Shown: positions 19,399-36,540 of the stretch, one piece after another
How the letters are laid out: each line of letters starts with the position of its first letter
Numbering within the stretch: the first letter of the stretch is position 1
Origin: Leptolyngbyaceae cyanobacterium
GTDB lineage: Bacteria; Cyanobacteriota; Cyanobacteriia; Phormidesmidales; Phormidesmidaceae
Reading direction: 5' to 3'
DNA: 64,000 nucleotides
NCBI GenBank assembly: GCA_965263355.1
Contig: CBDHHL010000049.1
Span: 160,001 to 224,000, forward strand
Position numbers and translations under genes: made by a program
Notes under the pieces: model-generated
Seen by the model: the letters and a program-made list of their open reading frames with translations, nothing else
What the model was told of the DNA's origin: nothing
Databases searched by the model: none

Positions 19399-19537
19399 TT
19401 TTGTGCGAGAAGTAGAGCCTTGAAGAATTGCTACCGTTTTGTATTAGACGACAATTATTTTGGGCTCTTCTGAGCTTTTAGTGAGCTGTTAAAGCTTGGT
19501 GCTAGCAAGACCTAAAGCAGAGCGTAGTGGATGTTTT

Positions 19538-20590
19538 ATGAATAGCGCATCTCCATTGGAACGTCTACCTATGGTTCATTTGAGTACAGAAAAAATTCCG
19601 CAAGAACATCAGCTCGAAGTTTGGCAACAGACAGCCTCTCCTCTATTTGATGTGATTCCCATGAAGGATATGCGGTCTTTTTCGTGTTCAGTCACCAGTT
19701 ACTTGGTAGGGCAGTTGACCTTTAATCACACAACATTTGATCGAACACAATTTATTCGTACATCGCGACATCTTTCAATTCATGGGTCTGATTGTATTAC
19801 TCTCCAGTATTACTGTTCTGGGCAAATTCAGGGAAATCTGGAGAGTGGCGTTCAGTTACAGATGGCGAGCGATCGCATCTCAATTCATGATTTTGCCCAT
19901 CCCTACACTGGCATTGGTGAAACAAGTAACCAGTTTGCCATTGTCATTCCGCGCCATTTAATTACGGTTCATGACCAAATTTATAAAAATTATCCTGTGT
20001 TTTCTTGGTCTGTCAATTCGTCGGTTGGTCGCATCCTGACCCATGCATGGCTGACGATTTGGAAAAATCTCCCCGATATGTCTCAGGCAGATGCCTCAGC
20101 AATCGCACAGGGATTTATTGGCCTACTCAATGGCCTATTATCTAGCAAGCTGGATATGGCAACTCGTGCCCAGGTAGAACTGTCCACAATAGATGCGATG
20201 AAAGCCCATTTACAGGCTAATCTCCATCTAATTAATCTGGGAGTAGAAAGTCTGTGTGAGATATTTCACTGCTCACGTTCCACCGTTTATCGGTTATTTA
20301 AAGCTGAGGGGGGAGTCCAAGCCTATGTGCGAGAACAACGCTTGAAGTACTGCTATCAAGAACTGCAACAATTACCACCCTCTTCACGTAAAACGATTAG
20401 TGAAATTGCCGGAAAGTGGGGGTTTGCTGATGCAGCATCCTTTAGCCGTCTCTTTCGAAAACATTACGGCATATCGCCATCAGAGGTGAATGCCTCCCTG
20501 TCTGAAGCCATCGCTCCAGTGATGAAAACACAGGCAAGTTATTGGTCTGAAAGCGATCGTCTAAAACAGTGGTTAGAGAATTATTCATAA
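19538..20590 (+). CDS. AraC-family transcriptional regulator (FeaR-like N-terminal ligand domain)
   Basis: C-terminal double HTH (SRSTVYRLF ... ISEIAGKWGFADAASFSRLFRKHYGISPSE). ATG at 19538 preferred over TTG at 19496. Confidence 0.92.
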   Translation: MNSASPLERLPMVHLSTEKIPQEHQLEVWQQTASPLFDVIPMKDMRSFSCSVTSYLVGQLTFNHTTFDRTQFIRTSRHLSIHGSDCITLQYYCSGQIQGNLESGVQLQMASDRISIHDFAHPYTGIGETSNQFAIVIPRHLITVHDQIYKNYPVFSWSVNSSVGRILTHAWLTIWKNLPDMSQADASAIAQGFIGLLNGLLSSKLDMATRAQVELSTIDAMKAHLQANLHLINLGVESLCEIFHCSRSTVYRLFKAEGGVQAYVREQRLKYCYQELQQLPPSSRKTISEIAGKWGFADAASFSRLFRKHYGISPSEVNASLSEAIAPVMKTQASYWSESDRLKQWLENYS

Positions 20591-20604
20591 TTTACCTGAC
20601 TGCC

Positions 20605-20670
20605 TGAGACAAATTAACAAGGAAATTGAGACGTCTTCCCAAGACGACGCAAAAACACCTCAAATATACT
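20605..20670 (+). promoter_or_regulatory. Putative AraC-activated promoter: tandem TGAGAC-N7-CAAG repeats plus -10 TATACT
   Basis: TGAGACaaattaaCAAG (20605-20621) and TGAGACgtcttccCAAG (20627-20643), 22-bp period, then TATACT at 20665-20670, upstream of the S8 gene. Confidence 0.55.
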
Positions 20671-20795
20671 GAAGCAGTAAATCTACGGTATTCCTTAGAT
20701 CACCACAGTAATTGATCTGCAAATCTGCGACAAATCAGATTAATTAGGCTGAAAAACAATCTCAAGCCAATACGTTTAGGGGCATCAAGACACTG

Positions 20796-22091
20796 ATGAA
20801 ACCTCATATTAAGCTGACCTTAAAACAGGATATTGTTCCCGATCAGATTCCGTATTGGGAGGATGTAGCCTCTGGAAAAGCTACTGCTCCAACTTCTATC
20901 TTGCCTGCGATTGATCAGGTGATTAAACAATATGGTTGTTCTGTAAGAGTTACGAGAGAATATCAGCCTGCTAGTAAAACCTGGGGCCAGGATGAGCGTA
21001 TCAGTGGGTTTAATCGAGTGTATCGCCTGATTTTGAGGCGAAAAACAGCTATTCCACCTGAGATGATACGCGCGATCGCAGCGCTGCCCATAGTCGCAGC
21101 GGTGACACCAAGTAAAGTAGCCACAGCTGTTCTGCCTTCGGTGATGGCACATTCTTTTTCCCTGGAGACCAATCAGCGATCGCGAGATGCGATCTATCTA
21201 CCAGAGGCCCATCACTACAGCCGGGGCAATTCGCAAATCACTGTGGCCGTGCTGGATACAGGGGTTGATCTCGATCATCCTGAGTTAACTGAAGCACTGT
21301 TGCCAGGCCATGACTTCGTCAACATTATTAATGGGGCCAGGAAGTTTGTTGGAGACTATTTAGGCTATGACGCCGACCCTGATGATGAGGTTGGGCATGG
21401 CACCCATGTAGCTGGCATTATTGCGGGTCAGGGATTAGCCATGCCGCTAGGGGTGGTGCCCCGCTGTAAGATTTTGCCCGTGAGAGTTTTGGGGGCGATG
21501 AAGAGAGGGTCTAAACGAGTCGGGGCAGGGTTGTTAGACAACATCAACGTCGGCATTAAATGGGCAATTGATCAGGGCGCGCATGTGATCAACATGAGCC
21601 TGGGCATTAAGCATACTGGGGGGGGACTACCGCATCAAGAGGTAGTGGAGTATGCCCGACGGAAGGGGGTTACGATCGTAGCCGCCTCTGGCAATGATGG
21701 GCAGGAAGAACGCTACTATCCCGGTGCCCTGCCCCATGTAATTACAGTGGGCGCGGTGGATGACATGGGCCAGATGGCAGCTTTTTCCACCTATGGACAG
21801 CAGGTGGATTTGGTCGCCCCCGGTACGGATATTTACAGTGCCTATCGCGGCCAGACCTATGGCTTTTCCACCGGCACATCCCATGCGACTCCCTTTGTGA
21901 CAGGGGCCGTGGCGTTATTAAAGTCCTATGCCTGGACCCATGGGGGAGTTTATTTGTTGGATCAGCAGGTTAAATATCTGCTGCAACAAACCACGGACAA
22001 AGTCGACCACCATTTCAAACACCGCAAAGCTGGGTTTGGTCAACTTAACCTTATTGATGCCTTGCGATTACTGGATTACAAACTGAGGTGA
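20796..22091 (+). CDS. S8 (subtilisin-like) serine protease with N-terminal prodomain, no signal peptide
   Basis: Catalytic motifs VAVLDTG (Asp), GHGTHVAG (His) and STGTSHATP (Ser), plus oxyanion AASGND. Confidence 0.95.
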   Translation: MKPHIKLTLKQDIVPDQIPYWEDVASGKATAPTSILPAIDQVIKQYGCSVRVTREYQPASKTWGQDERISGFNRVYRLILRRKTAIPPEMIRAIAALPIVAAVTPSKVATAVLPSVMAHSFSLETNQRSRDAIYLPEAHHYSRGNSQITVAVLDTGVDLDHPELTEALLPGHDFVNIINGARKFVGDYLGYDADPDDEVGHGTHVAGIIAGQGLAMPLGVVPRCKILPVRVLGAMKRGSKRVGAGLLDNINVGIKWAIDQGAHVINMSLGIKHTGGGLPHQEVVEYARRKGVTIVAASGNDGQEERYYPGALPHVITVGAVDDMGQMAAFSTYGQQVDLVAPGTDIYSAYRGQTYGFSTGTSHATPFVTGAVALLKSYAWTHGGVYLLDQQVKYLLQQTTDKVDHHFKHRKAGFGQLNLIDALRLLDYKLR

Positions 22092-22243
22092 GTCGTGGAT
22101 TTACAGTCGAGATGGATTCAAGCAGAAACAACTAGAGCTAAAGATTTCCTCAAAGGGTTTCTATTGAGGATAAGCATCCGGACTTCAAATCGGCACACCC
22201 GCTGATTGATATGACGAAGTAATATCACACATCGAGGTAAACC

Positions 22244-23740
22244 ATGATGATACAGAAGAGATGGAGTAAAGCAGGATCAAATAGTGATAAAGCACAACAA
22301 GAAGTTGTCCAAGCAATCGCCGTTGATAAATCTGGAAATCTCTATGCAGCAGGTTATCGCACTGCAGCAACTAACAGAAAATATGCCTGGATTGGCCACT
22401 ATGATGTTGATTCAGGAAAATTCACCGAACTCGATGACTTAAAAAGAGAGACTAACGATGCTCAGGTATCAGTCTCAGCCATTGCCCTGGGTAACAATAA
22501 CCGCCTTTACGTAGCAGGGACCACCAAGGTCGTGTTTGGTTCTACGAGTATAGACAAAGGAGCAATCTTTGAGACTGATAAGGGGGAGCCGCTAGATCCT
22601 AAATCTGATAATCTTCTCAGCAATAAGGGCGCTTTAAATCACGTTTGGGTTGCTGAATATGTAGTCACTCAGCAAAGTAATGGCCAATGGAAGGCTGCTC
22701 AAAAGTGGGTGGTTGTGCTTAATCATCATGGTGATCAAGACGTCCATAGTATTGTGACTGATGGTAGTAGCGTTTATTTAACCGGGTCAACCAACACTAA
22801 CTTCTCCACAAGTGTGCCCAGTCCATACCCAACACCCAGTAGCCCCACAACTGCATGGGTGGCAAAAGTTACAGGAGGACAACACACAACTAATTGGATT
22901 GATCAAGTTTATCCAATTGAATCCGATAAAACCAGCAAGAATAGCAGAGGTCTCAACGTTCTTATTAATGGGAGTGGCAACTTAGAGGTCATAGGAGTAA
23001 GAGATAATACCCCTCATCCCACTGCATACTCAATTTGGGTGGCCGAATATAATCTCAATAAATACAATTCTAGCACTAGGGAGGGAAAGTCACTAACATC
23101 ACCTTCTAACATGTCTCTCAGTAAGGCAGTTCACGAAGACGTTACTGATATCACAACAGATGGTCAGCATATTTATGTTGCAGGACACACTGTAGATAGT
23201 CCTGTAGGATTTAGTTCAGCATTTTCACCATTTAAAGTTGGCGGCAAATGGCACTTTGTGGCTGGATTTGATATTAGTACTGGTAGGGAACTTTGGCCTT
23301 TAGAGAATAATCTAATCCTTAAAAACAGTGGCGGAGCTATTCAGAAAACAGCGATCGCTGTCCATGGCCAAAATCTTTATGTGACAGGGGATAACGTTTC
23401 TGCCGCAGCTGCGTGGGTGGCGAATATCGATGCTTTTACAGGGGAGCATTATGGGATTACCGACATATCTTTGTTAAAGCAACCTAATCATGACCAAGAT
23501 GCCTATGCAATTGCTGCCAATGATTTTGGTATTTACATTGCGGGAAGTACAGCCCAAAAATCGAACGGCGTGGTGGCCAGACTGGTAACTCATCTCAATG
23601 TCATCCTGGAGTATATCCGCAAAGCTTCTCGTCCTAGTTCTGTTTCTAGCGGTGTGAGACCCCCATTAGAAACAGAACTAGGAATTCCGACTTCACCTGT
23701 GCGCACAATCCTCAAGCACATCGGTTATCCGATTGCTTAA
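22244..23740 (+). CDS. Beta-propeller (SBBP-like repeat) protein
   Basis: Repeated blades: AIAVDKSGNLYAAG, AIALGNNNRLYVAGTT, SIVTDGSSVYLTGST, DITTDGQHIYVAGHT, AIAVHGQNLYVTG, AIAANDFGIYIAGST. RBS GAGGT. Confidence 0.75.
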   Translation: MMIQKRWSKAGSNSDKAQQEVVQAIAVDKSGNLYAAGYRTAATNRKYAWIGHYDVDSGKFTELDDLKRETNDAQVSVSAIALGNNNRLYVAGTTKVVFGSTSIDKGAIFETDKGEPLDPKSDNLLSNKGALNHVWVAEYVVTQQSNGQWKAAQKWVVVLNHHGDQDVHSIVTDGSSVYLTGSTNTNFSTSVPSPYPTPSSPTTAWVAKVTGGQHTTNWIDQVYPIESDKTSKNSRGLNVLINGSGNLEVIGVRDNTPHPTAYSIWVAEYNLNKYNSSTREGKSLTSPSNMSLSKAVHEDVTDITTDGQHIYVAGHTVDSPVGFSSAFSPFKVGGKWHFVAGFDISTGRELWPLENNLILKNSGGAIQKTAIAVHGQNLYVTGDNVSAAAAWVANIDAFTGEHYGITDISLLKQPNHDQDAYAIAANDFGIYIAGSTAQKSNGVVARLVTHLNVILEYIRKASRPSSVSSGVRPPLETELGIPTSPVRTILKHIGYPIA

Positions 23741-23800
23741 TGAGACAAATTAATCCGACGATCTTCAAGGATAAATACTCTATTTAATGGAGAAACAATA

Positions 23801-25570
23801 ATGAATCAAACCAGTTCTGTTGATGCAATCTTACAGGTCAACGCACCTAACATTCCTCTTGATACTTATACTCAAAAGGCTCTAGAAGAATTAGCCGCTA
23901 TGCTGCGATCAGAAGCAAGTCAAGGAAAGGAGCAAATAAAGTCTCAAGGATTAACTAGTAGGGTCTCTCAGGTTACCGCACAGTTAAATGCGACATCTTT
24001 GAAGGGGGTAACCCAACTCCTTCTCTCAAACAAAACTATCTACTCGGCTATGCTTTGTAGGGCCCTCAAAGAGGGGGCGAATGACGAACAGGCTCTGCAA
24101 AACGCTGTTTTACGATACCTTGAAGATGTCAAAAAGGTGCTCTACGCTCGAATGATTGATCTTGTGCGTGCGGACAATCACATTGACATTAAGCAAGACA
24201 CAAACAAGTGGCAGATGCTCGGGGAGTTGGTTCTAGCACAGGGAATTCCCATTGAATCAGGGAAGGTGAAACCTGCTGTGTTAGGTATGTTTAACACGAT
24301 TCATGAGCGGGGACTGCTGGACTATTACCTGGATGAATATATCAAGCGGGGGGAAATCGAGCCAAGTAAGTTCACCCCTGCCATCAAGACCAAGATGCTG
24401 GATCATCTGGTCAAGCTCAATCTGAAGATAAATGACAACCTTAGCGTTGCCCAACAAACAGCCTATGATGAGTATTTTGCCTTAGCTTACAGTGAGGCGA
24501 TTGGCAGTGGTTCAGCAACCAACGATCCCATTGACCAGGTTTATACAACTGGCTTTAAGAATAGCTGGGATTTTACCGTTGATGATCTCACGAAGTACGA
24601 CAAGCAAAATGTTGAACCCGAGAACATTCTGGCTGCCGGAGCCCTGGATTATATTTACTGTGTGGGTGAGGCAATGCGGGTTTTCGATGCAACCGATGCT
24701 CTGGTTTTACGCTGGGCCAGCGGTCTGTTAGATATTCCCGATGGTTCTACAGCCTCGGCCCTTTATCGGTATTACAAACGCCGGGACGATCGCTCCTCAG
24801 CCGAAGAGCGGGCCATGCTCTACAAGCGTGTGCTAAACCGAGGCAACGGCCAGCTGCTGACGCGCATGGTCGCCAATACTGGCTTTACCGATTTGTGGAA
24901 TGAACTTATGCAGGCTGTCATGGCCTACATCCGCAAGTCAGAGCACAAAGTCTATTGGAACTCCTGGCAAGACAACGGTTTGTCCTTGACCCACATCTAC
25001 CGCGTCACCGAAGACTTGCAATATAATCTCACCCTGCATATGACTGGGATGGCCCATCTGCAAGTGACGGAAGACTATCACCATCTTAAAGAAGCCCTCG
25101 ATATTATCAGCAGTCATGATATCCGCAACTACTATGGCGGCAGCAATCGCCAGAGCGTGTGGAACACCATTGCTCGGATTGTGCAGGAAGAGTTCCACGC
25201 TGGTCTCAATACTGAAGTCATCAAAACCATGGCCACTGAAGGCAATAAGGTGTTCCAGTGGTTGGCCAACTTTAATGAAAACACCGTAACAGCCGCTCAG
25301 TTTCAAACCTTTGCCAAAGCTGCCGAAGCCTGGGCGATCGCTCAATCAAGCCTCAGTGGCGGGCGTGTCGCTTATCACCCCCACTACGAATTACCCGGTG
25401 CCTCTCTGCCTGTACCGGCTGGTTACCACTCCAATGGTTATGGCCACCGCCACGGCCATGGATATTTGGGTCATAACGCGCTGCCTGGGGCCGACTTTAA
25501 CGGCAGCCACGGGCTGTCACAGGCGGAGGCTGTTTACGCCGATGCCAGTGATGAGTTTGACCAATGGTAA
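23801..25570 (+). CDS. Hypothetical, largely alpha-helical protein with a His/Gly-rich tail
   Basis: 589-aa ORF with RBS GGAG. The tail GYGHRHGHGYLGH...AEAVYADASDEFDQW looks disordered. Confidence 0.85.
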   Translation: MNQTSSVDAILQVNAPNIPLDTYTQKALEELAAMLRSEASQGKEQIKSQGLTSRVSQVTAQLNATSLKGVTQLLLSNKTIYSAMLCRALKEGANDEQALQNAVLRYLEDVKKVLYARMIDLVRADNHIDIKQDTNKWQMLGELVLAQGIPIESGKVKPAVLGMFNTIHERGLLDYYLDEYIKRGEIEPSKFTPAIKTKMLDHLVKLNLKINDNLSVAQQTAYDEYFALAYSEAIGSGSATNDPIDQVYTTGFKNSWDFTVDDLTKYDKQNVEPENILAAGALDYIYCVGEAMRVFDATDALVLRWASGLLDIPDGSTASALYRYYKRRDDRSSAEERAMLYKRVLNRGNGQLLTRMVANTGFTDLWNELMQAVMAYIRKSEHKVYWNSWQDNGLSLTHIYRVTEDLQYNLTLHMTGMAHLQVTEDYHHLKEALDIISSHDIRNYYGGSNRQSVWNTIARIVQEEFHAGLNTEVIKTMATEGNKVFQWLANFNENTVTAAQFQTFAKAAEAWAIAQSSLSGGRVAYHPHYELPGASLPVPAGYHSNGYGHRHGHGYLGHNALPGADFNGSHGLSQAEAVYADASDEFDQW

Positions 25571-25639
25571 GTCCCATCCAAACATGTCTGGGCATCGCAT
25601 CCGTGGGCATTGCAACCACAGTACTGAATAGGAATTGAG

Positions 25640-26701
25640 ATGATGACCAACAATGGAAACTTAATGGAACAGGCTAAGCAATTAGCCCGTGAAGAATTTA
25701 GTCGCGATCAAACCTTCCAAAAGCTCGATCGTAGCCAACAGTTTGAACTGTATCGCGATCGCGTAAATGACATCCACAACCAGCTTGCCCAACAACAAAC
25801 TGTGTCGGATGCCATGTCAGCGGACCAACTCGTAAATAAGAAATTTCTCCAAAACCAACGGATTGATCAGGAAGGTGAGCAGGCCGGTAGAGTGCTGCGG
25901 GACGTAAATTTCCCCAAGTTTGTTAAAGATCTGCTCAAAGGGGTGTTTGACGCCAATTTGACAGTGATGAAGGAGCAGATGGAATCCTACGTGGATTTGG
26001 TCGAGAAAATCACCAAGCCAGCCAGCGAGTTTATTAAGACCATTGACGATGTTGCGGCCTACACCTTTATGGCGGAAAGCCAGCCCAATCGTTTCCAGTT
26101 GTTACCGCCAAAGGCTCCCTCAAACCTGCCGGGGGGAACTCCGCCGGGTGTGGGAAGTGTTCCTCAGCTATCCACCAGTAGCGGCACGCAATTGGCGGAT
26201 AAGGACGGTAATCCACTGAGTAAAGACGATATCCGTGGGGAGGTAATGCAGGCCAAACTACAGCTTGCCAATCAGCATCAGCAGTTGTTGGAAGAGATGT
26301 TGCTGATGGGGGTCACCCGTCTAGTCGTAGACCACGGTAAGGTGAAGGCCAGCGTTGATTTCCAAATTAAAGCCCATGAGGCTCTCAATGCAAGCGATAG
26401 TGCCTACGAAAACAAGCAACACTCCCAAACAAAAGGCTTTCATCTTGGTTACTCACCCTTTTTTCGGGGACCCTCTTTTGGTATTAGTCACTCCAAGACC
26501 AACACCCAAATCCAGATTTCAACTGCGGGTGCTACTGGTACCGGAACAACGGACGAAACGACCAAGGTCCATGGCGAAGTGGAAATCAACTTCAAGTCAG
26601 ATTACTTCAAGTTGGATAATTTCCGCGATATCTTAGCCCAGACTAAACCCAAAACGGACCAGAAAGACAAGACCCAACCGGTTGACCAATCGGAGTCTTA
26701 A
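25640..26701 (+). CDS. Hypothetical protein: helical N-half plus long Ser/Thr-rich beta-hairpin-like C-half (candidate pore/tube subunit)
   Basis: 353-aa ORF. C-half VKASVDFQIKA...GFHLGYSPFFRGPSFGIS...TKVHGEVEINFKSDYF. Function is inferred only. Confidence 0.75.
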   Translation: MMTNNGNLMEQAKQLAREEFSRDQTFQKLDRSQQFELYRDRVNDIHNQLAQQQTVSDAMSADQLVNKKFLQNQRIDQEGEQAGRVLRDVNFPKFVKDLLKGVFDANLTVMKEQMESYVDLVEKITKPASEFIKTIDDVAAYTFMAESQPNRFQLLPPKAPSNLPGGTPPGVGSVPQLSTSSGTQLADKDGNPLSKDDIRGEVMQAKLQLANQHQQLLEEMLLMGVTRLVVDHGKVKASVDFQIKAHEALNASDSAYENKQHSQTKGFHLGYSPFFRGPSFGISHSKTNTQIQISTAGATGTGTTDETTKVHGEVEINFKSDYFKLDNFRDILAQTKPKTDQKDKTQPVDQSES

Positions 26702-26737
26702 ACGACATTAAGCAACGGTTAGCGGAGAGTAACCCCG

Positions 26738-27073
26738 ATGGCGCTGGCGATTTTGCACTACGAAGACAGCAATAGTACCCACTGCCGGTTTCGTATCGAC
26801 ATTGGCACAACAAATCGGTTCTATACCTATGCCATTGGCGATCATCGCATGTTGCAACGCCATGGTCTGGTGGTGTTTGCCCAGCCAAAGGTGGTTTCAC
26901 CTCTGTTGTCACTAGCGGCATACCGCCTGGGGCGGGGCGTTTTGACAATTCCCCACCCGCAGTTTGATACCCGTCATTGTTATGTGCAACTGATCAGCTA
27001 TCGAACCGCAGATAAACAGGGGCCAGCCCTGTCCACCATCATTAGGGTCCCGTTGTTCTCCTCCAGTCGATAA
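26738..27073 (+). CDS. Small hypothetical protein (beta-rich)
   Basis: 111-aa ORF with upstream GGAG, co-oriented within the cluster. Confidence 0.65.
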   Translation: MALAILHYEDSNSTHCRFRIDIGTTNRFYTYAIGDHRMLQRHGLVVFAQPKVVSPLLSLAAYRLGRGVLTIPHPQFDTRHCYVQLISYRTADKQGPALSTIIRVPLFSSSR

Positions 27074-27087
27074 CATGCGGGTCTCGG

Positions 27088-27126
27088 TCTGTTATTCCAA
27101 TCTGTTATCTCAATCTGTTATCTCAA
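27088..27126 (+). repeat. 13-bp tandem repeat x3
   Basis: TCTGTTATTCCAA TCTGTTATCTCAA TCTGTTATCTCAA in the intergenic gap. Confidence 0.85.
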
Positions 27127-27172
27127 TGGCAACCGCGATCGCAATTGTCATGTCTTTCTCCCATCTGTAATT

Positions 27173-28882
27173 TTGTTTATCCGTGAAGCAATGACCATGG
27201 ATCACCAACCCACTTACACCATGTCTTTTGCCTACGACGAAATCCGCCCTGACACCTACAGTCTGGGCCAGGGATTCTTAGGCAAGTTATTCAAAGGGGC
27301 TACCAAAGTCATATCCGGGGTTGTCAAAGGCGTATCCCACGCCATCCCTGTGGTCAGCAAGCTTGCCGGGAAGCTATTACCGGCCCTTATGCCTGCGTTA
27401 GAACCCGTTTTGGGTAAAAAAGGGGCCTCCCTGGTGGGGCAACTGGCTGGCATTTTAGGCGGCAGCGGCGGCAAGATAACGGATGTTCTCAAAGACCCTG
27501 CCAAAGTAGCCCAAATCGCTAAGCTTCTAAAGACGACTGGCCTGACGCAAAAACTGGCTCATGCGAAGGGAGAACCAGTGGAGGCCATGGGGCATTCGTA
27601 CGGTTTTTCTCAAGGGTATGGGGCCATGGCCCCCACCTATGGGGAATACGGATACCCCGATGAAGAATACCAACACCCCGAGCGCATCCTAACCCAGCTG
27701 CTGGAACATTCGCTGCACCCAGAAACGTTGCAGGGACTGATGGTCGATACCCTACGTCCTGCCGTTATGCGAGGGATGGTGGTCCATGGCCTTATAGATA
27801 CCTTTAAGCTAATTCCAGGGTTTCCTGATGCGTTGGAGCGGATGGTAACAGAAGAGTCATGGTCCACAGGTCAACCACCCGCGATCGCAGGGCTGGCCTC
27901 CCACTCTCCCGAATACCCCTACCATCGGGTGGAAGCCGTCACCCTGCATTTTACGGATATTGAACCGCTGAGCGTAGGCGGGCGATCGCGGGTGCTTTAC
28001 TACATCGGGGATGACCTGGCGTTTCCCCTGGAACTAGAGACACCTCGCCCCATCCGCCACGGGACACTGCAGATTTTGGTCAAGTGTCCCGAGACGCTAA
28101 AGGTGATGGTGGAGCAAACGTTTCAGCTCCATCACCTCGTGTCAGGTGAGCTAGATACAGTACCTTACCTGAGCCGGTCCCAGCTGCGATCGCTCCAACC
28201 CAATGCCGAGTATCTGATCTGTGCCGTTTTGACCTGGACGGCGCGCTCCAGCCAGAGCGGGCACGAACGACGCTTAGGCACCAGCACCAGTGTGTTAGCG
28301 ACGCTGATGGGCAACTATATTTTTGACCAGCTAGACGGGGTTACTGAGACCTTTGCCCTCAACGATCCCCAGACGCATCGCCCCTACTGGCATAAAGTCT
28401 GGACGGGCGGGATGGCCACCGATGACCAAACCCTGGCCCTAGATTGCAAATACTATTACGTCCTGGAGGCTGAGCCATCTCAGCATGCCCGCATGGAAAC
28501 CCTTATCCGCATGGATGCCCACGGCGGCGATGCCTCCGGTAAATTAAAAACGGGGTTGGTATTGAGTCTCACCCAGCTCAATCAGCTAGCGGCCTGGATG
28601 TTCGAGCAGCCCCCCCTGGACACTGACGAAATCGTCGCCCTGGCCTGTTGTGAATTTTGCGATCGCTTTCACCAATTAGCCCGCACCCAGGTGACTTTTA
28701 CCGGCGACGCTGGCGATCGCGCCACCCTTTGGGTCTATCCCGAATTCGATCAGCAGCGAGTGGTGCTAAAGCAGGTTAGCGATCGTGATGCCAATGGCCG
28801 CGTACAACAACTTGTTGACCACATTATTCAGTTCCCCATACCAACAACCGCTCACTTTGTAGGCACCACTACCGCCGTCTAA
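27173..28882 (+). CDS. Hypothetical protein with N-terminal cationic amphipathic segment and beta-rich C-terminal domains
   Basis: 569-aa ORF (true start may be ATG 27191 or 27197), containing FLGKLFKGATKVISGVVKGVSHAIPVVSKLAGKLL. Confidence 0.8.
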   Translation: MFIREAMTMDHQPTYTMSFAYDEIRPDTYSLGQGFLGKLFKGATKVISGVVKGVSHAIPVVSKLAGKLLPALMPALEPVLGKKGASLVGQLAGILGGSGGKITDVLKDPAKVAQIAKLLKTTGLTQKLAHAKGEPVEAMGHSYGFSQGYGAMAPTYGEYGYPDEEYQHPERILTQLLEHSLHPETLQGLMVDTLRPAVMRGMVVHGLIDTFKLIPGFPDALERMVTEESWSTGQPPAIAGLASHSPEYPYHRVEAVTLHFTDIEPLSVGGRSRVLYYIGDDLAFPLELETPRPIRHGTLQILVKCPETLKVMVEQTFQLHHLVSGELDTVPYLSRSQLRSLQPNAEYLICAVLTWTARSSQSGHERRLGTSTSVLATLMGNYIFDQLDGVTETFALNDPQTHRPYWHKVWTGGMATDDQTLALDCKYYYVLEAEPSQHARMETLIRMDAHGGDASGKLKTGLVLSLTQLNQLAAWMFEQPPLDTDEIVALACCEFCDRFHQLARTQVTFTGDAGDRATLWVYPEFDQQRVVLKQVSDRDANGRVQQLVDHIIQFPIPTTAHFVGTTTAV

Positions 28883-28941
28883 GAGAGGCGCACAAAAATC
28901 TCTCCCCTTCTCCCCAACCGACTCATCCACGGAGCAAACCC

Positions 28942-29223
28942 ATGTCCTCTCCCTCTCCCCCACCCTTGCACTCCCCCTTCTCCCAGGTTGTAGAACAACT
29001 CACCGGCTGGGAAGCCCCCCTCGAAGATTCAACCTGGGGGCATCGTCTCACCGTGGACGCCTTAAAGGTGACTATGCCCATAGAACTGAGCATTGACGTC
29101 GACAATACCGGCGCGGTCACAGTCAACGGGTCGGCCCCCACCCAAACGGTCGAAACCACAATCATGCCAGTGTTTCATCGTGTGCGGATGCGTTTGACGG
29201 TGGACGAGGAAGCGACGCCATGA
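28942..29223 (+). CDS. Small hypothetical protein, Trypco-like pattern (short helix plus long beta strands)
   Basis: 93 aa, RBS GGAG, ATGA overlap with the next gene. LTVDALKVTMPIELSIDV...HRVRMRLTV resembles protease-co-occurring small domains; this resemblance is by eye. Confidence 0.65.
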   Translation: MSSPSPPPLHSPFSQVVEQLTGWEAPLEDSTWGHRLTVDALKVTMPIELSIDVDNTGAVTVNGSAPTQTVETTIMPVFHRVRMRLTVDEEATP

Positions 29224-29963
29224 ACACCACCAACCAGCCCTGGAACCTCAATTCCTTTATCGACGCGCTGATCTACGAACTCGATCGCGCCCACGATACT
29301 TTGTCAGTAAAAGGCACCAACCGCAAGCTCACCTATATGGTCAAAGACTTAGATCTGGACTTGCAGTTATTTCCCGAATTTGATGGAGATGCGGTTTACT
29401 TTACCACCGCTCAACCAGGTGACATCGGAGCCTCTAAAATCAGTGTGAAATTAGGGTCTATTCGCGACCATCAAATCCAGGAAATTGCCAAAAAACCTGT
29501 TAGCCATGCCGACATTGCCCTGGAAGAAACCCAACTACCGCTAGCCACGCGCAAAATCTTAAAGAAGCTAGGCATTCACTCCGCCGAAGACCTGCGCCAC
29601 ACCATCGAAGATCGCGGTATCGACCTAAACATTGCTACCGACGGCCAGGTCGATTACCAGCAGCTTACCGACATTCTCCACCAGGCCCACCGCCAGCACT
29701 ATCCACCGACCGTCGCCAGCGCCAAATTTGACCAGGTCGACGGCCAGCCCGTCCTCACCCTACAGGGCAAAAATCTCGCTGTCACCCAATCCACCAATGG
29801 CTTTCCCGCCGCCCTGCTCGATGGCCACCCCATCCCGATGTTGACTGCCAGGGAAGATGAGATTCAGTTTCAGCTTGACCCGCAACAACTGCACAATCGC
29901 CCCGGACAGTTAAAAGTAGCACTGGACCCGTATGCGGTGGTGGCGATGAAATTGGCGGTTTGA
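29220..29963 (+). CDS. Hypothetical protein: Trypco-like N-domain, HhH-like helix pair, Ig/TIG-like C-domain
   Basis: N-domain LNSFIDALIYELDRA...YMVKDLDLDLQL...ASKISVKL; middle RKILKKLGIHSAEDL; C-domain VLTLQGKNL...GQLKV. Translationally coupled to the upstream gene. Confidence 0.7.
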   Translation: MNTTNQPWNLNSFIDALIYELDRAHDTLSVKGTNRKLTYMVKDLDLDLQLFPEFDGDAVYFTTAQPGDIGASKISVKLGSIRDHQIQEIAKKPVSHADIALEETQLPLATRKILKKLGIHSAEDLRHTIEDRGIDLNIATDGQVDYQQLTDILHQAHRQHYPPTVASAKFDQVDGQPVLTLQGKNLAVTQSTNGFPAALLDGHPIPMLTAREDEIQFQLDPQQLHNRPGQLKVALDPYAVVAMKLAV

Positions 29964-29965
29964 TA

Positions 29966-30080
29966 GAAGTAACGAGTTGCGAGTAACAAGTTGCAAGTAA
30001 TAACAACTAAGCATCAGCGACTAAGAACCAACAACTAAATAAACGTTTTTCACTTTTTACTTTTCACTTTTCACTTTCCC
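29966..30080 (+). repeat. Degenerate cyanobacterial heptamer tandem repeats (STRR-like)
   Basis: AGTAACG AGTTGCG AGTAACA AGTTGCA AGTAATA, followed by TTTTCAC/TTTTTAC units. Confidence 0.7.
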
Positions 30081-30098
30081 CCTCCCTTTTTCTCTCCC

Positions 30099-31313
30099 AT
30101 GTCTAATGCGTCTTCCTATTACAATCGTCTCCGATCGCTCGAATCTGAGCTGTTGGATCGGGGTGGGGCGGTGTCAGCAGATAGGCCGGTTACACCGCAG
30201 CGGAGATTGCTGGATACGGGTGTTGAGACTTCCCACAGGAGCTGGATATCTCCCGGTTGGCGAAGAGAAGGAGCCCATCGAGAACAGTGGCCATCGCAGC
30301 CAAGTGACATATCTAGCGGTAATCGACTGCTAGGGTTGGCACACCATTTGGATCGGGGGCGTGTCAGCGCCTCAGCTACCCCTGAGAGAGTATCACCTTC
30401 GGTCTCCTCAGCTCGGCGTTCTGTCGCTGACAACGGCTTTGCAGCCTATGTCTTTGATCAGGGTGAGCACATCCAGGTGGGCTACAGACCAAAGGTGTCT
30501 CTCCCAGAAGATGAAGTGGAGGATTGGGCAGATGAAGCGCCCGACTGGACTGATCAGTGGGATAACCACTGGGACGGTGACTGGGAGGACGATGAGTCAG
30601 AATATTGGGAGCCTGACGAGGATCTGACAGAGGATGAACAGTCTGCTTGGGAGGAGGAAGAGGCTGAGTGGGAGGAGGACCGGCCCCAACCGTTGACCCA
30701 GCGACCACAGGCAGCGCCCGGTCACCCGTCGGCTCCTGGGCCTACTTCCAAAACACCGGTTCAGCGCAATGGGCAGCGCCCGGTCACCCGGACCGTCGTA
30801 GTCGATGACGTTCCGGCTAAGTCACCTAGCAAACCACCTGCCCAGCGCCCCGCCACGCAGACCGTCACGGTCAAACCGATTCCTGTAGATGACGGAGCGG
30901 CCCCGACAACAGAGGCCAGTCCGCCACCGCCAGCTGCCCGGAATGGCCATGCCGCCCGAGCACCCAAAGCCATCCCCCGGACCCGCCCGCCCAAGGCAAA
31001 GGGCACCACACCGCCACGCCCGTCGGCTCCGCGGCCCCCGACCCCAAAAGCGAACCCAGCCCCGTCTCCGGCCAGGGCGAATGGCAATAACCCGCACGCG
31101 GCCTTTGGCAAGCTTAGTCAATCGTTAAACCACGCCACTGCCTTCAACCTGGGCACTGTCCCCGTTGAAATCCCCTTCGATGACTTTGATCATCGCATTA
31201 CCCAAGAGACCACCGCCCAGGCCCAAGCCCTAGAGCACCGCTTTAAAGAATTCGATCGCGTACTCACCCGCAAGCCTAAAACCAAACCTTCCGAACGCGC
31301 CCCGCCATCCTAA
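30099..31313 (+). CDS. Intrinsically disordered protein with an acidic Trp/Asp/Glu tract and a Pro/basic tract
   Basis: 404 aa. EDWADEAPDWTDQWDNHWDGDWEDDESEYWE followed by a Pro/Arg/Lys-rich region. Shares short motifs with the next ORF. Confidence 0.8.
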   Translation: MSNASSYYNRLRSLESELLDRGGAVSADRPVTPQRRLLDTGVETSHRSWISPGWRREGAHREQWPSQPSDISSGNRLLGLAHHLDRGRVSASATPERVSPSVSSARRSVADNGFAAYVFDQGEHIQVGYRPKVSLPEDEVEDWADEAPDWTDQWDNHWDGDWEDDESEYWEPDEDLTEDEQSAWEEEEAEWEEDRPQPLTQRPQAAPGHPSAPGPTSKTPVQRNGQRPVTRTVVVDDVPAKSPSKPPAQRPATQTVTVKPIPVDDGAAPTTEASPPPPAARNGHAARAPKAIPRTRPPKAKGTTPPRPSAPRPPTPKANPAPSPARANGNNPHAAFGKLSQSLNHATAFNLGTVPVEIPFDDFDHRITQETTAQAQALEHRFKEFDRVLTRKPKTKPSERAPPS

Positions 31314-31370
31314 ATCTTACCTTTTACCTGTTACTCGTCACTTGTTCCTTTCTCTTCCCCCGAGGTACCC

Positions 31371-32699
31371 ATGACCCAAACTACCTTGCCCAACCGCCTA
31401 TTTGCCCTCGACCAACATCTCACTCACAAACGCATGCATGCCAATGCGCCGCCTGGTACGAGGGTAGCCTACCGATTTGATCAGGGGGCACCCATCCGGG
31501 CCATGGGGTATCCCGAATGGGATACCGACTCGGAGTACGCCGAGGCCAACGACTGGGACGACGAGGACTTCGAGAATGAAGCCTATGCCGAGGCCAGTGA
31601 TTGGGATGACGAGGACTTCGACGTCGATGGGGACTATGCCGAGGCGAGTGATTGGGACGATGACGACCTCGAGGACGAAGCAGAATACGCCGAAGCCAAT
31701 GCCTGGGACGACGAGGACTTCGAGAACGACTCGGAGTACGCCGAGGCCAGTGCCTGGGACGATGACGACTTCGACGTCGATGGGGACTATGCCGAGGCCA
31801 GTGCCTGGGACGACGAGGACCCCGACCACGACGCCTATGCTGAGGCGAGTGATTGGGACAATGGCGATTTTGAGGACGCCTCGGAGTATGCCGAGGCTAA
31901 TGACTATGTGGATGCCTACGATGTCGACGCGGACCACCTAGATGGCTTAGAAGCGGAGGCCGACGAAGACATCTATGCCGAGGCCAGTGAGTACTCCGAC
32001 GATGATGAAGCCGCCTATGCCGAGGACTTCGACGTTGAAGACCCCGGTGAGTGGGCGGAGGACTTTGACGCGGAGGACGACCCCGATGCCTGGGCGGCGG
32101 AGTTCGACCCAGCTGATGACTACGCCGATGCCGCTGGGGACCCTGCCACCTATGTCGACGCGATTGTAGAAGCCCCGGTGGCCTATGAAGCCGCATCGTT
32201 TGAGCTGGGGGACGCACCAGAGGATTGGGCTACTGAGGACCAAACCATTACGGTAGAGGCGGCGGCTGTAGATTCCACTCCAGCTGACGACGATACCGAG
32301 GTGGCCCCGACATCGGCCCTGGCAGCGGAAGTTGCGGCCTTGCGGCACGATGTGCAGGCCTTAAGTCACACTCCGCAAGTAGCCTCGCCTACGTACCCCG
32401 CGACGGCGTTTACTACCGAGTTGCAGGAACTGCGCGACCAGGTGCGGGCGATGCAGGCCAACAAGCCGCCAACAGCCAATCCGGCAGAGGCAGAGGCCAT
32501 GGCGGCGCAAGTGCAGGCGTTGAAGCGGGAGCTACAGTCGATGCGGGTACAGCGCTCGACGGAAGCGCTCAGCTCCGGTTACTGGACGGCACTGGAACAG
32601 GAGCCATTGTTTAAGGCTTTCGACGACCAAATGGCCGCGTCCGTGGCACCCCCCGCGACCCCAGAGGACATATCAAAATTATTAGCTGATTCTCCTTAA
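31371..32699 (+). CDS. Highly acidic repeat protein with C-terminal coiled-coil segments
   Basis: 442 aa, RBS GAGGT. Nine YAEA[S/N] units, then three short heptad helices (LAAEVAALRHDVQAL, LQELRDQVRAM, VQALKRELQSM). Confidence 0.85.
   Translation: MTQTTLPNRLFALDQHLTHKRMHANAPPGTRVAYRFDQGAPIRAMGYPEWDTDSEYAEANDWDDEDFENEAYAEASDWDDEDFDVDGDYAEASDWDDDDLEDEAEYAEANAWDDEDFENDSEYAEASAWDDDDFDVDGDYAEASAWDDEDPDHDAYAEASDWDNGDFEDASEYAEANDYVDAYDVDADHLDGLEAEADEDIYAEASEYSDDDEAAYAEDFDVEDPGEWAEDFDAEDDPDAWAAEFDPADDYADAAGDPATYVDAIVEAPVAYEAASFELGDAPEDWATEDQTITVEAAAVDSTPADDDTEVAPTSALAAEVAALRHDVQALSHTPQVASPTYPATAFTTELQELRDQVRAMQANKPPTANPAEAEAMAAQVQALKRELQSMRVQRSTEALSSGYWTALEQEPLFKAFDDQMAASVAPPATPEDISKLLADSP
31533..32030 (+). 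repeat. Coding tandem repeat, about 48-51-nt units (YAEA[S/N]xWDDxDF...)
   Basis: Repeated TAYGCCGAGGCCA(G/A)YG..TGGGACGAYGA units in the DNA, in frame with ORF 31371-32699. Confidence 0.9.
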
Positions 32700-32922
32700 G
32701 GGGCACCCCCGCAAATCCAGGATTTCAAGAAAGACGAAGTCCCATTGGTCGTGGCTATCCACACACCGTTACCGCCTGCTGAAGGGCGGCTCGCTTACCA
32801 GGCAACAAAGTGTAGTCAATAAGTCACACAACCACACCAGCCAAGGCCGCCGCTCCATGCCATGTCTTCCCTTGAGTGACTCAAGGTCCACATCGGAACA
32901 AGCCACCTTATTCAGAGGAACT

Positions 32923-34359
32923 ATGAATAAACTACGAATGATCGAGGCATTTCTCTACCCAGCTGCCACACATCCCAACCGCGAGGAGCCAACGGAACAC
33001 CGCCTGCAACTAACCAGTGCATTAGGCTACGACCAAGTTCTAGCTGCGCGCCGGGCGCGATCGCACGAAGTTATCACCGAAGCAAAGAAAGCAAACGTCA
33101 AAAAAGACAAAGACTCGCTTTCCCAATTTTTGGGAACGTACATCGATAAAATCTACCCGAACACTAAAGCCGATGACAAATGGTTAATCACTGAAGAGCT
33201 TCTGCAGCAGATAGCTGAGACCAACTCGCCATATAGAACCTACGCAAACTCGTTGCTCAACACGACTTACAGCGAGGAGAATCTCAAAAGGAAGAAGTAC
33301 TATATCCAGAACAACAAGGTAACCAAAGTCTCAGACCATTCCAGTAATCCACGCATCAAGTATTACCGCTACATGGGCAAGATCTACAAGGTCACTACGA
33401 AGAAGGCTAATGCAGAGTTTCCCAAGAATATAGGGAGTCGACTTAAAAATCTAATCACCATTCTCACCCCGAAAAACATAAAAAGGAATACGAAAATCAC
33501 TACGAAAATCACATGGATAGATGTCTCTCCCACCGGCTATGACAACGAGTACGACGCGTCAATTCTTCTTTCCTATTCTTATAATAAAAATGTGTCTGGC
33601 AGATTTCATTGTCACTTGCACAAACAATATAACCAATTAAATCCAAAGCCAGGAAACGGCTGGGTTGTTTTCACAGACGGCATCACAATCGAACTTAACA
33701 GAGAAGACTGGAAACCGTGGGCGCTGGCAGCATGGGGCGATGAGTTTCAAATCTCAAAATACGATAAATCTGCCAATGTTATTGACGCTATCGCCAAGAG
33801 AATCCAAAAAAGGCCCGGAAAACACAAGGTAGAGAAAGCACTCGGTCTCAATCAATACAAGATCTCGAACCTAGACTTCGATGGCATACCAATTTATCTA
33901 AAATACACAAAAACCGGAAAGGTAAAAACGTTAATGGTAGGCAACATGAGTATCTTCGACGTAAATATCAAAGGCACGTCCAAGAATACGATATCCAAAA
34001 TCCGTAGTGCCCTGGATAAGTTGGCCACCTACAAGAAATTCGGAAACGAGATTATTACCGCAACACTAAAAGAATTGGCTGATATGATAGATTCGAAGAC
34101 TAATAACGAAACGAAAGTTGAGTTACACCCCAAATACTCATCCACCATCAATATTATCGTCACTGAAAATAAGTCCGGTCGCTCCAATATTATTACCCGA
34201 CCGCTTTCTATAAGCCAACAAACGGGCAAACCCCTTCAGTTGTGGTATGGCAACGACTCCATCATCTTGACTGAAGACGCCTCAATAAAGCTCGAGAACA
34301 CTCTAAAGTTGATCGCAGGTTATGAAGATCTCGTCAACAGGCTCCAAAACCCTAAGTAG
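32923..34359 (+). CDS. Lys-rich basic hypothetical protein with a cluster-type N-terminal leader (candidate cargo/effector)
   Basis: ATG 32923 follows AGAGGAA. Leader MNKLRMIEAFL...TSALGY. The body is visibly more AT-rich and Lys/Ile/Asn-rich than the two upstream genes. Confidence 0.75.
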   Translation: MNKLRMIEAFLYPAATHPNREEPTEHRLQLTSALGYDQVLAARRARSHEVITEAKKANVKKDKDSLSQFLGTYIDKIYPNTKADDKWLITEELLQQIAETNSPYRTYANSLLNTTYSEENLKRKKYYIQNNKVTKVSDHSSNPRIKYYRYMGKIYKVTTKKANAEFPKNIGSRLKNLITILTPKNIKRNTKITTKITWIDVSPTGYDNEYDASILLSYSYNKNVSGRFHCHLHKQYNQLNPKPGNGWVVFTDGITIELNREDWKPWALAAWGDEFQISKYDKSANVIDAIAKRIQKRPGKHKVEKALGLNQYKISNLDFDGIPIYLKYTKTGKVKTLMVGNMSIFDVNIKGTSKNTISKIRSALDKLATYKKFGNEIITATLKELADMIDSKTNNETKVELHPKYSSTINIIVTENKSGRSNIITRPLSISQQTGKPLQLWYGNDSIILTEDASIKLENTLKLIAGYEDLVNRLQNPK

Positions 34360-34381
34360 CCATCATAGCGCAGCAGAGCCA

Positions 34382-34413
34382 GTAGGGTGCGTTACGGCAC
34401 AACCTAACGCACC
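34382..34413 (+). repeat. REP-like palindrome with GTAG foot (possible terminator/stabiliser at the end of the cluster)
   Basis: GTAG followed by a perfect 9-bp stem, GGTGCGTTA (34386-34394) pairing with TAACGCACC (34405-34413), with a 10-nt loop. Confidence 0.65.
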
Positions 34414-36344: not shown

Positions 36345-36540
36345 TCAAGGCATCGACGCGCCTCCGTTAGCTTAGCTCAAGACCTGACAGACCCTTGAGC
36401 CAAGCCAGCTACCCAGCAGGACTACCTGGTAAGTCTCCAGATTTTGACACTGTTTGGTATCCGCCATTCGGGAGCTGGTTTACCCCTCGGAGTGCGGTCT
36501 TTTACAACTAAAAGCTCATGACCAGTAACAGGTCTTCCAT

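Follow-up and report, generated by a model that had tools for sequence, protein, structure and literature searches.

What does a subtilase-headed run of largely nameless genes do in a cyanobacterium? In a stretch of 64,000 nucleotides from a Leptolyngbyaceae cyanobacterium (contig CBDHHL010000049.1, positions 160,001 to 224,000; hereafter the window), 12 co-oriented open reading frames (ORFs) on the + strand span 19496-34359, and scans of the Pfam, NCBIfam and PADLOC libraries name only three of them: an AraC-family regulator, an S8 protease and an SBBP beta-propeller. The remaining nine matched no Pfam, NCBIfam or PADLOC family. A first-pass annotation, made from the sequence alone, had described an AraC-linked cluster of eleven co-oriented, mostly tightly spaced genes whose protease would arm a toxin particle or conflict system; our ORF listing and translations recovered these genes at the same positions. 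We conclude with moderate confidence that the window contains a copy of a widespread conflict system not described before, in which S8-dependent processing would be combined with the export, packaging or release of polymorphic effectors that carry a shared N-terminal leader.

Relatives of the cluster establish that it is a unit. Using the 353-residue (353-aa) protein as query, we searched one genome per species across 185,579 species, found 188 stretches encoding a relative and fetched the best 80 of these with 10-kb flanks (loci designated by L numbers). The cassette is widespread, occurring in at least eight bacterial phyla; by hand count from titles, the 80 loci comprise 28 from Cyanobacteria, 20 from Pseudomonadota, 11 from Bacteroidota, 9 from Gemmatimonadota, 3 each from Acidobacteriota, Planctomycetota and Desulfobacterota, 2 from Myxococcota and 1 from an unclassified bacterium. 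Six genes form its core, in the fixed order S8 protease, ~590-aa, ~350-aa, ~700-aa, ~100-aa and ~250-aa protein (core 1 to core 6). All six were present in 53 of the 56 loci having both flanks (the exceptions being L027, L049 and L074), with identical order and strand in 53 of 53 complete loci, and where the upstream DNA reached 4.8 kb or more, an S8 gene was found in 64 of 65 loci. The conserved gene order around an S8 gene that the first-pass annotation had proposed looking for is therefore borne out, and this linkage rules out a chance cluster or spurious ORFs. Many of the tblastn misses for core proteins (Table 1) are explained by contig ends. The pairwise-distance matrices of the six core proteins correlate across 58 loci (r 0.44-0.89), which fits inheritance as a unit, a correlation that shared phylogeny alone would also give.

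The 353-aa protein had no tblastn match in 50,697 phage records, a result on which we reject a phage structural module, and it matched four plasmids. One of these, the mobilizable 193-kb plasmid NZ_CP063787.1 of Tolypothrix sp. PCC 7712, holds a cassette at 137197-147368 (L107) whose RefSeq labels read 'S8 family serine peptidase', 'peptidoglycan-binding domain-containing protein' and, six times, 'hypothetical protein'; plasmids of Tolypothrix PCC 7601 and Microchaete diplosiphon gave near-identical cassette matches. In L107 an IS701 transposase lies directly 3' of the 247-aa-type gene, at the expected place of the leader-tagged effectors. Other departures from the common layout were also seen. 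Adonisia turfae has a second, incomplete cassette (L027) on the same scaffold as L021, which retains the S8, 589-aa, 353-aa and FN3-like parts; the remainder of core 4 and both the 93-aa and the 247-aa protein went unmatched there. Twelve loci, mostly cyanobacterial, carry an additional gene, of median length 446 aa, inserted 3' of core gene 4 and ahead of the 93-aa gene (for example L003:13117-14409 and L077:13384-14721), with no counterpart in the window and no Pfam family in the four members scanned.

Set against these loci, the AraC, propeller and 500-aa genes of the window are not conserved parts of the system. An AraC-like match occurs in 1 of 80 loci, and the link to AraC that the first-pass annotation had treated as a feature of the system is not supported; in 14 other loci the upstream position is taken by another conserved gene family, whose two scanned members are sigma-54 activators. 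The AraC gene is a local neighbour and possibly a regulator of the cluster. The propeller, found in 2 of 80 loci by tblastn (a Symploca homologue scores 3e-24 against SBBP), occupies a variable slot between the S8 and 589-aa genes that holds PG_binding_1, ConA-like Laminin_G_3 or unknown proteins in other cyanobacteria, PG_binding_1 being the occupant in Nostocales loci, and that is empty in most other phyla. Of the eleven-gene unit first described, a conserved unit headed by S8 stands, and its extent changes to six core genes plus leader-tagged effectors.

The leader is the feature that unites the proteins encoded after the core. One to three of them begin with an amphipathic motif, (M)x0-9-N-R-L-x-x-L-E-x-x-L, usually followed by a Lys/Arg-rich stretch; the leaders are amphipathic and charged and contain no Sec-type hydrophobic core. 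Behind the leader stands either disordered sequence rich in short motifs or one of a range of exchangeable toxin domains. Counted as the strict pattern within the first 90 residues, the leader is present in 26 of 57 ORFs in first position after the core, 26 of 51 in second, 7 of 26 in third, 1 of 9 in fourth and 0 of 2 in fifth; elsewhere in these loci 6 of 444 ORFs match it, and of the core proteins 1 of 359 does. Many downstream proteins that lack the strict pattern show degenerate leaders by eye. In five cassette-bearing genomes, a leader profile matched strongly inside the cassettes and only weakly elsewhere (E 0.02 to 0.5). Two of the weak matches, at E 0.02 and 0.5, fall in adjacent 432-aa ORFs of Adonisia turfae (C11:4414014-4415721), far from either cassette, which are possible orphan leader-tagged proteins. 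Complex prediction of the leader with the 247-aa protein, the 93-aa protein and the FN3-like domain returned a score of 0.00 and carries no weight either way.

All three downstream proteins of the window carry the leader. All-against-all clustering places the 404-aa protein in a family with 87 ORFs from 60 loci, encoded directly after the 247-aa gene, with one or two members per locus, lengths of 242 to 1280 aa, largely disordered sequence and a series of short motifs: NRLxxLE at the N terminus, FDxxxPI, VESFE and HxxFxxMxYAxxFDLGxxxLxxxFDEFD. The window copy is likewise disordered and has FDQGEHI and HAAF..ATAFNLG..FDDFD, and the 442-aa protein is very acidic and repeat-rich (pI 4.1). The first-pass annotation had taken this pair for disordered acidic paralogues; they turn out, beyond that, to belong to the conserved leader-bearing family found in 60 loci. 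In the 500-aa ORF the leader stands directly after Met23, so ATG 32923 is the likely start, and the database gene call likewise begins at Met23 and gives 478 aa. This protein has no homologue among 5.8 billion clusters apart from its own 478-aa entry, and no Pfam family. It is basic (pI 9.6), and its gene is AT-rich, with a GC content of 0.43 compared with 0.49-0.61 for the nine cluster genes between the propeller and it. We regard it as a candidate strain-specific cargo or effector.

Across genomes, the downstream proteins form a varied arsenal. We scanned 80 of 126 downstream ORFs (those in second and later positions, plus first ones longer than 550 aa) with Pfam and found Peptidase_C70 (AvrRpt2-like) in 23, PG_binding_1 in 8, OmpA in 6, Amidase_2 in 3, Phage_lysozyme, Extensin-like_C and Peptidase_C92 in 2 each, and Glucosaminidase, GH19, PAD, Anthrax_toxA, EndoU, Ntox11, Patatin, calpain, CAP, Exo_endo_phos2 and DUF4347 in one each. 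At least 15 effector families are thus represented; six of the scanned ORFs are obvious housekeeping neighbours, and many, mostly cyanobacterial, have no family. The strict leader precedes 13 of the 23 C70 proteins as well as the PAD, CAP and DUF4347 proteins, and a degenerate leader was seen by eye in a further 8 of the C70 set, in the two lysozymes and in the proteins with EndoU, Ntox11 and patatin domains. In three proteins, ORF calls that over-extend the N terminus obscure whether a leader is present. One cyanobacterial cassette ends in a 491-aa protein with an N-terminal Anthrax_toxA (adenylate-cyclase-type) domain and no leader (L048:19082-20554).

Toxin domains are exchanged behind constant N-terminal regions in these proteins. 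That of L059 aligns with those of L068, L072 and L077 only over the first ~484 residues, and L058 and L059 share an N-terminal region and a C-terminal module, with an EndoU domain present additionally in L058. This modular swapping substantiates the swappable cargo envisaged in the first-pass annotation, a leader and N-terminal region being shared while toxin domains differ between genomes. Polymorphic toxins join a constant N-terminal trafficking part to variable C-terminal toxins (PMC3482391), and the downstream proteins of the cassette show both.

How might such a cassette work? By what is known of polymorphic toxins (PMC3482391), a constant N-terminal element on varied toxins would act as a trafficking or recognition signal; in S8 peptidase-linked polymorphic toxin systems (S8-PTS), dedicated peptidases adjoining such toxins process them (PMC9424270). 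We infer that the leader is what the core recognises, and that the core, after S8 processing, sends the proteins bearing it to export, packaging or release. The protease would process core proteins, effectors or both, perhaps cutting where basic residues follow the leader or where acidic-aromatic motifs recur; the effectors, which lack a Sec signal, would then act on other cells once exported, packaged or released. A lectin-like slot protein (propeller, ConA-like or PG-binding) may provide targeting, and the payload of the window would be its three leader-tagged proteins, including the AT-rich orphan.

Several observations weigh against this reading. We found no cleavage site, assembly or export route, and the cassette holds no ATPase, membrane protein or known secretion component by which proteins might leave a diderm cell. 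The leader enrichment is partly post hoc, because the pattern was written after the sequences had been seen, and leaders are absent from the three Amidase_2 proteins and from the Anthrax_toxA, calpain, Exo_endo_phos2 and Laminin_G proteins. The three leader proteins of the window contain no recognisable toxin domain, and its core gene 4 is split (see below), so this copy could be impaired. In the few loci viewed by eye, no obvious immunity gene follows the C70 effectors, which is unusual for interbacterial toxins; in L038, L040 and L011 the effector gene is followed by housekeeping or opposite-strand genes. Finally, C70 proteins with PG_binding_1 and OmpA, amidases and lysozymes act on peptidoglycan, and self-lysis would account for such effectors equally well.

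Self-lysis belongs to the main rival account, in which the cassette is a protease-gated self-destruction device serving abortive infection or programmed lysis. A trigger would lead S8 to activate one or more core proteins as a membrane pore (candidates are the hairpin-bearing 353-aa protein and core 4 with its hydrophobic linker) and to unlock latent effectors; muralytic ones would reach the producer's own periplasm and lyse it, and nucleases and lipases would finish the cell or be released like colicins. This scheme, which follows the logic of Pepco, EACC1 and gasdermin modules (10.1101/2025.11.14.688446), strikes us as possible and on the doubtful side. It draws support from the fit of S8 to the PADLOC 'subtilase' model (2e-35), from the build of the 353-aa protein (a hairpin, then an invariant motif, then a variable tail), from the many effectors that bind or cut peptidoglycan without signal peptides, from the lack of an immunity gene after C70 effectors by eye, and from a host range rich in filamentous or social bacteria. 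However, no sensor domain of the STAND, CBASS-like or similar kinds was found in the cassette, and outward weapons more typically show what is seen here, namely a cassette of this size, a dedicated leader that as many as three or four proteins share, and polymorphic toxin domains (Ntox11, EndoU, PAD and CAP among them). Eukaryote-type enzymes in the arsenal and the lectin-like variable slot also tell against it, as does the lack of support for placing the 93-aa protein in Pepco, described below. An AraC gene here and sigma-54 activators elsewhere also suggest induced expression rather than standing surveillance.

Protease-effector defence modules built on Pepco, EACC1, MBL or alpha/beta-hydrolase proteins are described by Evans et al. 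2025 (10.1101/2025.11.14.688446). Like the cassette, these modules and bacterial gasdermin-protease operons place a protease gene beside latent effectors, include small beta-rich or hairpin proteins with cleavable tails, and are common in cyanobacteria and other multicellular bacteria. Unlike it, they consist of two genes fused or linked to a sensor, whereas the cassette has a six-gene core without a recognisable sensor and its effectors are leader-tagged and polymorphic. No cluster protein matched a Pfam or PADLOC gasdermin model.

Peptidoglycan-directed effectors also raise a reading that involves no conflict, namely envelope remodelling by peptidoglycan enzymes under transcriptional control during filament breakage, developmental autolysis or cell-wall turnover. 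Peptidoglycan-binding and -cleaving domains do dominate the named effector domains, PG_binding_1 proteins fill the variable slot of Nostocales loci, and regulators lie upstream. Nuclease, phospholipase, arginine deiminase, adenylate-cyclase-like and Ntox11 domains are nevertheless unlike housekeeping, and the occurrence of the cassette is patchy (188 stretches among 185,579 species genomes). Plasmid copies and the orphan AT-rich cargo gene point instead to a mobile conflict element, and we consider envelope remodelling very unlikely.

Core 1, the S8 protease, matches PF00082 at 181.1 bits (cut-off 21.8) over residues 146-415, and its D154, H201 and S362, together with the oxyanion N300, are invariant in 26 of 26 cassette orthologues. 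It is an intact subtilase, in agreement with the first-pass annotation, is predicted to be cytoplasmic and has a conserved, cassette-specific N-terminal domain of ~130 residues. Its PADLOC matches are the 'subtilase' model noted above and, as the only other, the IetS model. The best NCBIfam model is TIGR03921, the mycosin of type VII secretion systems (T7SS), at 207.4 bits under a cut-off of 278.75. Sec signals are likewise missing from T7SS substrates, among which are polymorphic LXG toxins, a further likeness. The cassette S8 nevertheless falls below the mycosin cut-off and has no membrane anchor, and no FtsK/EccC ATPase, WXG100 protein or T7SS membrane component was found among 16 window proteins (Pfam, E<=0.01).

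A close parallel is offered by the S8-PTS of Gram-positive bacteria, in which S8 peptidases release toxins (PMC9424270). These systems are described there as having three components, with toxins that carry a Sec signal peptide, a BetaH domain and paired immunity proteins (PMC9424270); toxin processing by the protease is proposed, and for BetaH reported as shown (PMC9424270; S. aureus S8-Ntox35, PMC13556192). Both kinds of locus link an S8 gene to toxins with a constant N-terminal part and variable C-terminal domains. The cassette differs in its five additional conserved core proteins, its different leader, its lack of signal peptides, its mostly diderm hosts and in that immunity genes are not evident by eye.

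The five non-protease core proteins have no detectable kinship to known families or machines, as judged from sequence and profile comparisons. Pfam (2025), NCBIfam (2026) and PADLOC hold no models for these five novel families, Pfam scans run on each member of five alignments (E<=5) pointed to no consistent family, Protein Data Bank (PDB) profile searches with five alignments, including those of the 353-aa, 589-aa, 247-aa and 93-aa families, returned nothing meaningful, and the core families showed no resemblance to one another by hhalign (all P >= 0.038).

Core 2, the 589-aa protein, belongs to a family whose N-terminal part is variable, and a separate ORF in 15 loci, and whose C-terminal ~350 aa are conserved in alignment; its acidic tail ends DEFDQW, where the family consensus has DDFDDW. 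It has no Pfam, NCBIfam, PADLOC or PDB relative, and a protein-atlas search for named clusters gave no usable match. Two distant homologues (2 of 26 members) show sub-threshold matches to the death-fold family CARD_2, at E 0.006 and 0.11, on the same homologous helical stretch (L018:8147-9955, residues 462-520, and L060:5590-7905, residues 636-692); we note them only as a lead to a possible link between this family and death-domain-type adaptors.

Core 3, the 353-aa protein, has 1037 database homologues at E<=0.001, all of which, among the 120 matches listed, are named 'hypothetical protein' and have no Pfam domain. Alignment shows a conserved helical N-terminal half, a long Gly/Ser/Thr-rich hairpin and, beyond a near-invariant DYFKLDNF motif, a variable Pro/Ala/Gln tail. 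The AlphaFold2 (AF2) model is poor (mean predicted local distance difference test score 59.5), with the hairpin at 233-248/303-318 of low confidence, and its fold search was uninformative. No Pfam match appeared in 20 members at E<=5. An atlas search suggested DUF2589 (PF11655; score 0.79) and otherwise gave the family's own unnamed cluster; this assignment was rejected at an hhalign P of 0.35 against a three-sequence alignment, a small one that limits sensitivity.

The genes for cores 5 and 6 overlap by 4 nt, the start of the 247-aa gene lying within the stop of the 93-aa gene. The 93-aa family has the consensus PIEL..VDE.G.V.LG.SPPTQ..ETS.MPVFHRLRL. The 247-aa family combines a conserved N-terminal domain with a TIG-like C-terminal domain, and its alignment includes what appears to be a helix-hairpin-helix-like segment; at E<=5 its members match TIG (6 of 26), Phasin (9 of 26) and Trypco2 (1 of 26) weakly. 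The first-pass annotation had called both proteins Trypco-like. Neither this nor a Pepco identity is supported: in the 247-aa family one of 26 members matches Trypco2 (PF19631; cut-off 24.2 bits, not reached), at E 0.14, and in the 93-aa family 0 of 26 do, while Pepco (PF24393) is matched by one of the 26 in the 93-aa family at E 0.082, with 0 of 26 reaching its 27-bit cut-off. With Pepco, Trypco2 and DUF2589 alignments built from fetched genomes, hhalign compared the 93-aa family with Pepco at a probability of 9.6% (P 0.0034), no better than Pepco against Trypco2 themselves (P 0.0037), and gave P 0.017 to 0.062 against the four-sequence Trypco2 alignment.

Core gene 4 sets the window copy apart from its relatives. 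The 111-aa and 569-aa ORFs, which the first-pass annotation had listed as separate genes, are two in-frame halves of one gene that is a single ORF in 67 relatives (median 698 aa; 64 of 67 begin MALA). They are parted by TAA 27071-27073 and a ~100-nt stretch in which a GCGATCGC palindrome and a tandem repeat (tctgttatctcaa x2) occur. The break lies in the variable linker of the family, just ahead of the conserved motif that opens the second part in the alignment, and the protein is therefore split at a domain border. Contigs from two public sequencing runs, made on two samples in a single study from which the window may itself derive, cover the spacer and show no difference. Proteins of the family have an FN3-like head joined through a hydrophobic, Gly/Ala/Pro-rich linker to a beta-sandwich body; the 569-aa half has a Gly-rich amphipathic linker, a conserved hydrophobic segment (family consensus APALLAALPALMPLL) and a C-terminal beta-sandwich region of ~320 aa. 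A fold search with core 4, the sole confident model in the cluster, found generic Ig/FN3-type beta-sandwiches only, and the best match in a Pfam scan of the family (E<=5) was Phage_TAC_15 in 2 of 25 members, which is not consistent. Structure models cover two of the five novel core proteins, namely 353-aa and core 4.

These folds bear on whether the core builds something that stays inside the cell. The first-pass annotation's toxin particle amounts to a cytoplasmic particle or compartment, in which the core proteins would build a shell or scaffold that is released only on lysis. Cargo would be loaded through the leader, and the protease would trim the disordered leader proteins, themselves acting as scaffolds, much as happens when capsids mature. 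A short terminal targeting motif on diverse cargo together with a dedicated protease would suit such an object, as would disordered scaffold-like proteins adjoining structural genes, the lack of an ATPase or membrane part, and lectin-like slot proteins that could decorate it. We nonetheless judge it improbable, since no HK97-fold, jelly-roll, bacterial microcompartment (BMC) or encapsulin family or fold was detected, with folds available for two of the five novel core proteins, since the only confident model consists of generic Ig/FN3 sandwiches, and since the 353-aa protein is missing from phage records (0 of 50,697, tblastn).

Contractile machines offer a further comparison. Extracellular contractile injection systems (eCIS, including the Photorhabdus virulence cassettes, PVC) and type VI secretion systems (T6SS) resemble the cassette in their diverse toxin domains, including C70 and peptidoglycan hydrolases. 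Their payloads bear a disordered N-terminal signal and are encoded at the end of the structural operon. The cassette is unlike them in having no phage relative (353-aa protein, tblastn) and, as its only confident fold, a generic Ig/FN3 sandwich, and no sheath, tube, baseplate, spike or AAA ATPase family was matched in the window proteins (Pfam, NCBIfam). Streptomyces umbrella toxin particles are secreted multi-protein assemblies in which a polymorphic toxin is combined with a subunit of protease family and with lectin-type subunits for targeting. Known routes serve for the secretion of the Umb proteins, which contain ALF repeats and coiled-coil stalks; their resemblance to the cassette is one of concept only.

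In its boldest form, the favoured conflict system would be a new export or toxin-delivery machine: a six-gene core, with five families lacking relatives and no ATPase, that reads a 10-residue leader (NRLxxLExxL), is matured by its subtilase and delivers polymorphic effectors, among them peptidoglycan hydrolases, nucleases, lipases and enzymes of eukaryotic type, to competitors or grazers. We put this forward tentatively, as a proposal that may well prove wrong. We rate the cassette outside the described kinds of system because no models exist for its five novel core families, RefSeq labels these 'hypothetical' and no description was found in the literature, which yielded only related concepts, namely S8-PTS in Gram-positives, protease-effector defence modules and Trypco/Pepco. 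The earlier impression that it matches no described system thus survives family scans, PDB profiles, fold searches and full-text literature searches, with the qualification that supplements of the bioRxiv preprint on protease-effector modules might list related protease-linked modules. Better fold searches might still tie it to something known.

If this reading is correct, the cassette encodes a multi-protein system that has so far escaped description, possesses a targeting signal of its own and draws on a rich set of swappable effectors. What it would contribute is either a new route of toxin deployment, which as a delivery machine would in effect be an undescribed secretion system, or a new and unusually elaborate protease-gated death module. 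Five sizeable protein families gain a context, the 353-aa family alone having more than 1000 members, and the leader motif provides a simple means of finding unknown effectors in genomes, such as the 478-aa orphan of the window. Culturable hosts carry the cassette, including Tolypothrix PCC 7601/7712, Calothrix PCC 7716, Hahella, Sphingomonas naasensis, Skermanella stibiiresistens and Fulvivirga imtechensis, and the question is therefore directly testable.

Table 1 Features of the cassette in the window, with the number of the 80 related loci matched by each window protein in tblastn.
Feature	Positions	Strand	Loci matched (of 80)	Evidence or remark
AraC-family regulator	19496..20590, ATG at 19538	+	1	Pfam HTH_18 1.3e-16, HTH_AraC
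Core 1, S8 subtilase	20796..22091	+	69	PF00082
SBBP beta-propeller, variable slot	22244..23740	+	2	Pfam SBBP 1.6e-6 (weak)
Core 2, 589 aa	23801..25570	+	78	
Core 3, 353 aa	25640..26701	+	80	
Core 4a, 111 aa, N-terminal FN3/Ig-like domain	26738..27073	+	74	
In-frame TAA and ~100-nt spacer splitting core gene 4	27071..27190	+		Sequence reading
Core 4b, 569 aa, likely start ATG 27191 or 27197	27173..28882	+	67	
Core 5, 93 aa	28942..29223	+	63	
Core 6, 247 aa	29220..29963	+	66	
Leader-bearing protein 1, 404 aa	30099..31313	+	24	Leader NRLRSLESEL at residue 9
Leader-bearing protein 2, 442 aa	31371..32699	+	6	Leader NRLFALDQHL at residue 8
Leader-bearing orphan, 500-aa ORF	32857..34359	+	0	Leader NKLRMIEAFL after Met23
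Inverted repeat with 9-bp stem, GGTGCGTTA..TAACGCACC, beyond last gene	34386..34413	+		Sequence reading

Intergenic gaps within the cluster range from -4 to 205 nt. No cluster protein contains a hydrophobic stretch of transmembrane grade (maximum Kyte-Doolittle 19-mer 1.64), consistent with the first impression that none has an obvious Sec signal. The inverted repeat beyond the last gene has no T-run and is absent from the output of a terminator scan. Directly 5' of the AraC gene, a 2412-aa single-module reducing polyketide synthase (KS-AT-DH-ER-KR-ACP; 12160-19398, +) terminates in a PlsC-type acyltransferase domain, and in L045 a 345-aa ORF of the same acyltransferase family comes after the cassette. 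On the downstream flank lies a 186-aa PTPA-CTERM protein gene (35784-36344, +; NF033465, 30.6 bits vs a cut-off of 29) with a signal-like N terminus, followed by genes for a DUF4870 protein (36422-36931, -) and a TPR protein (36924-37880, -).

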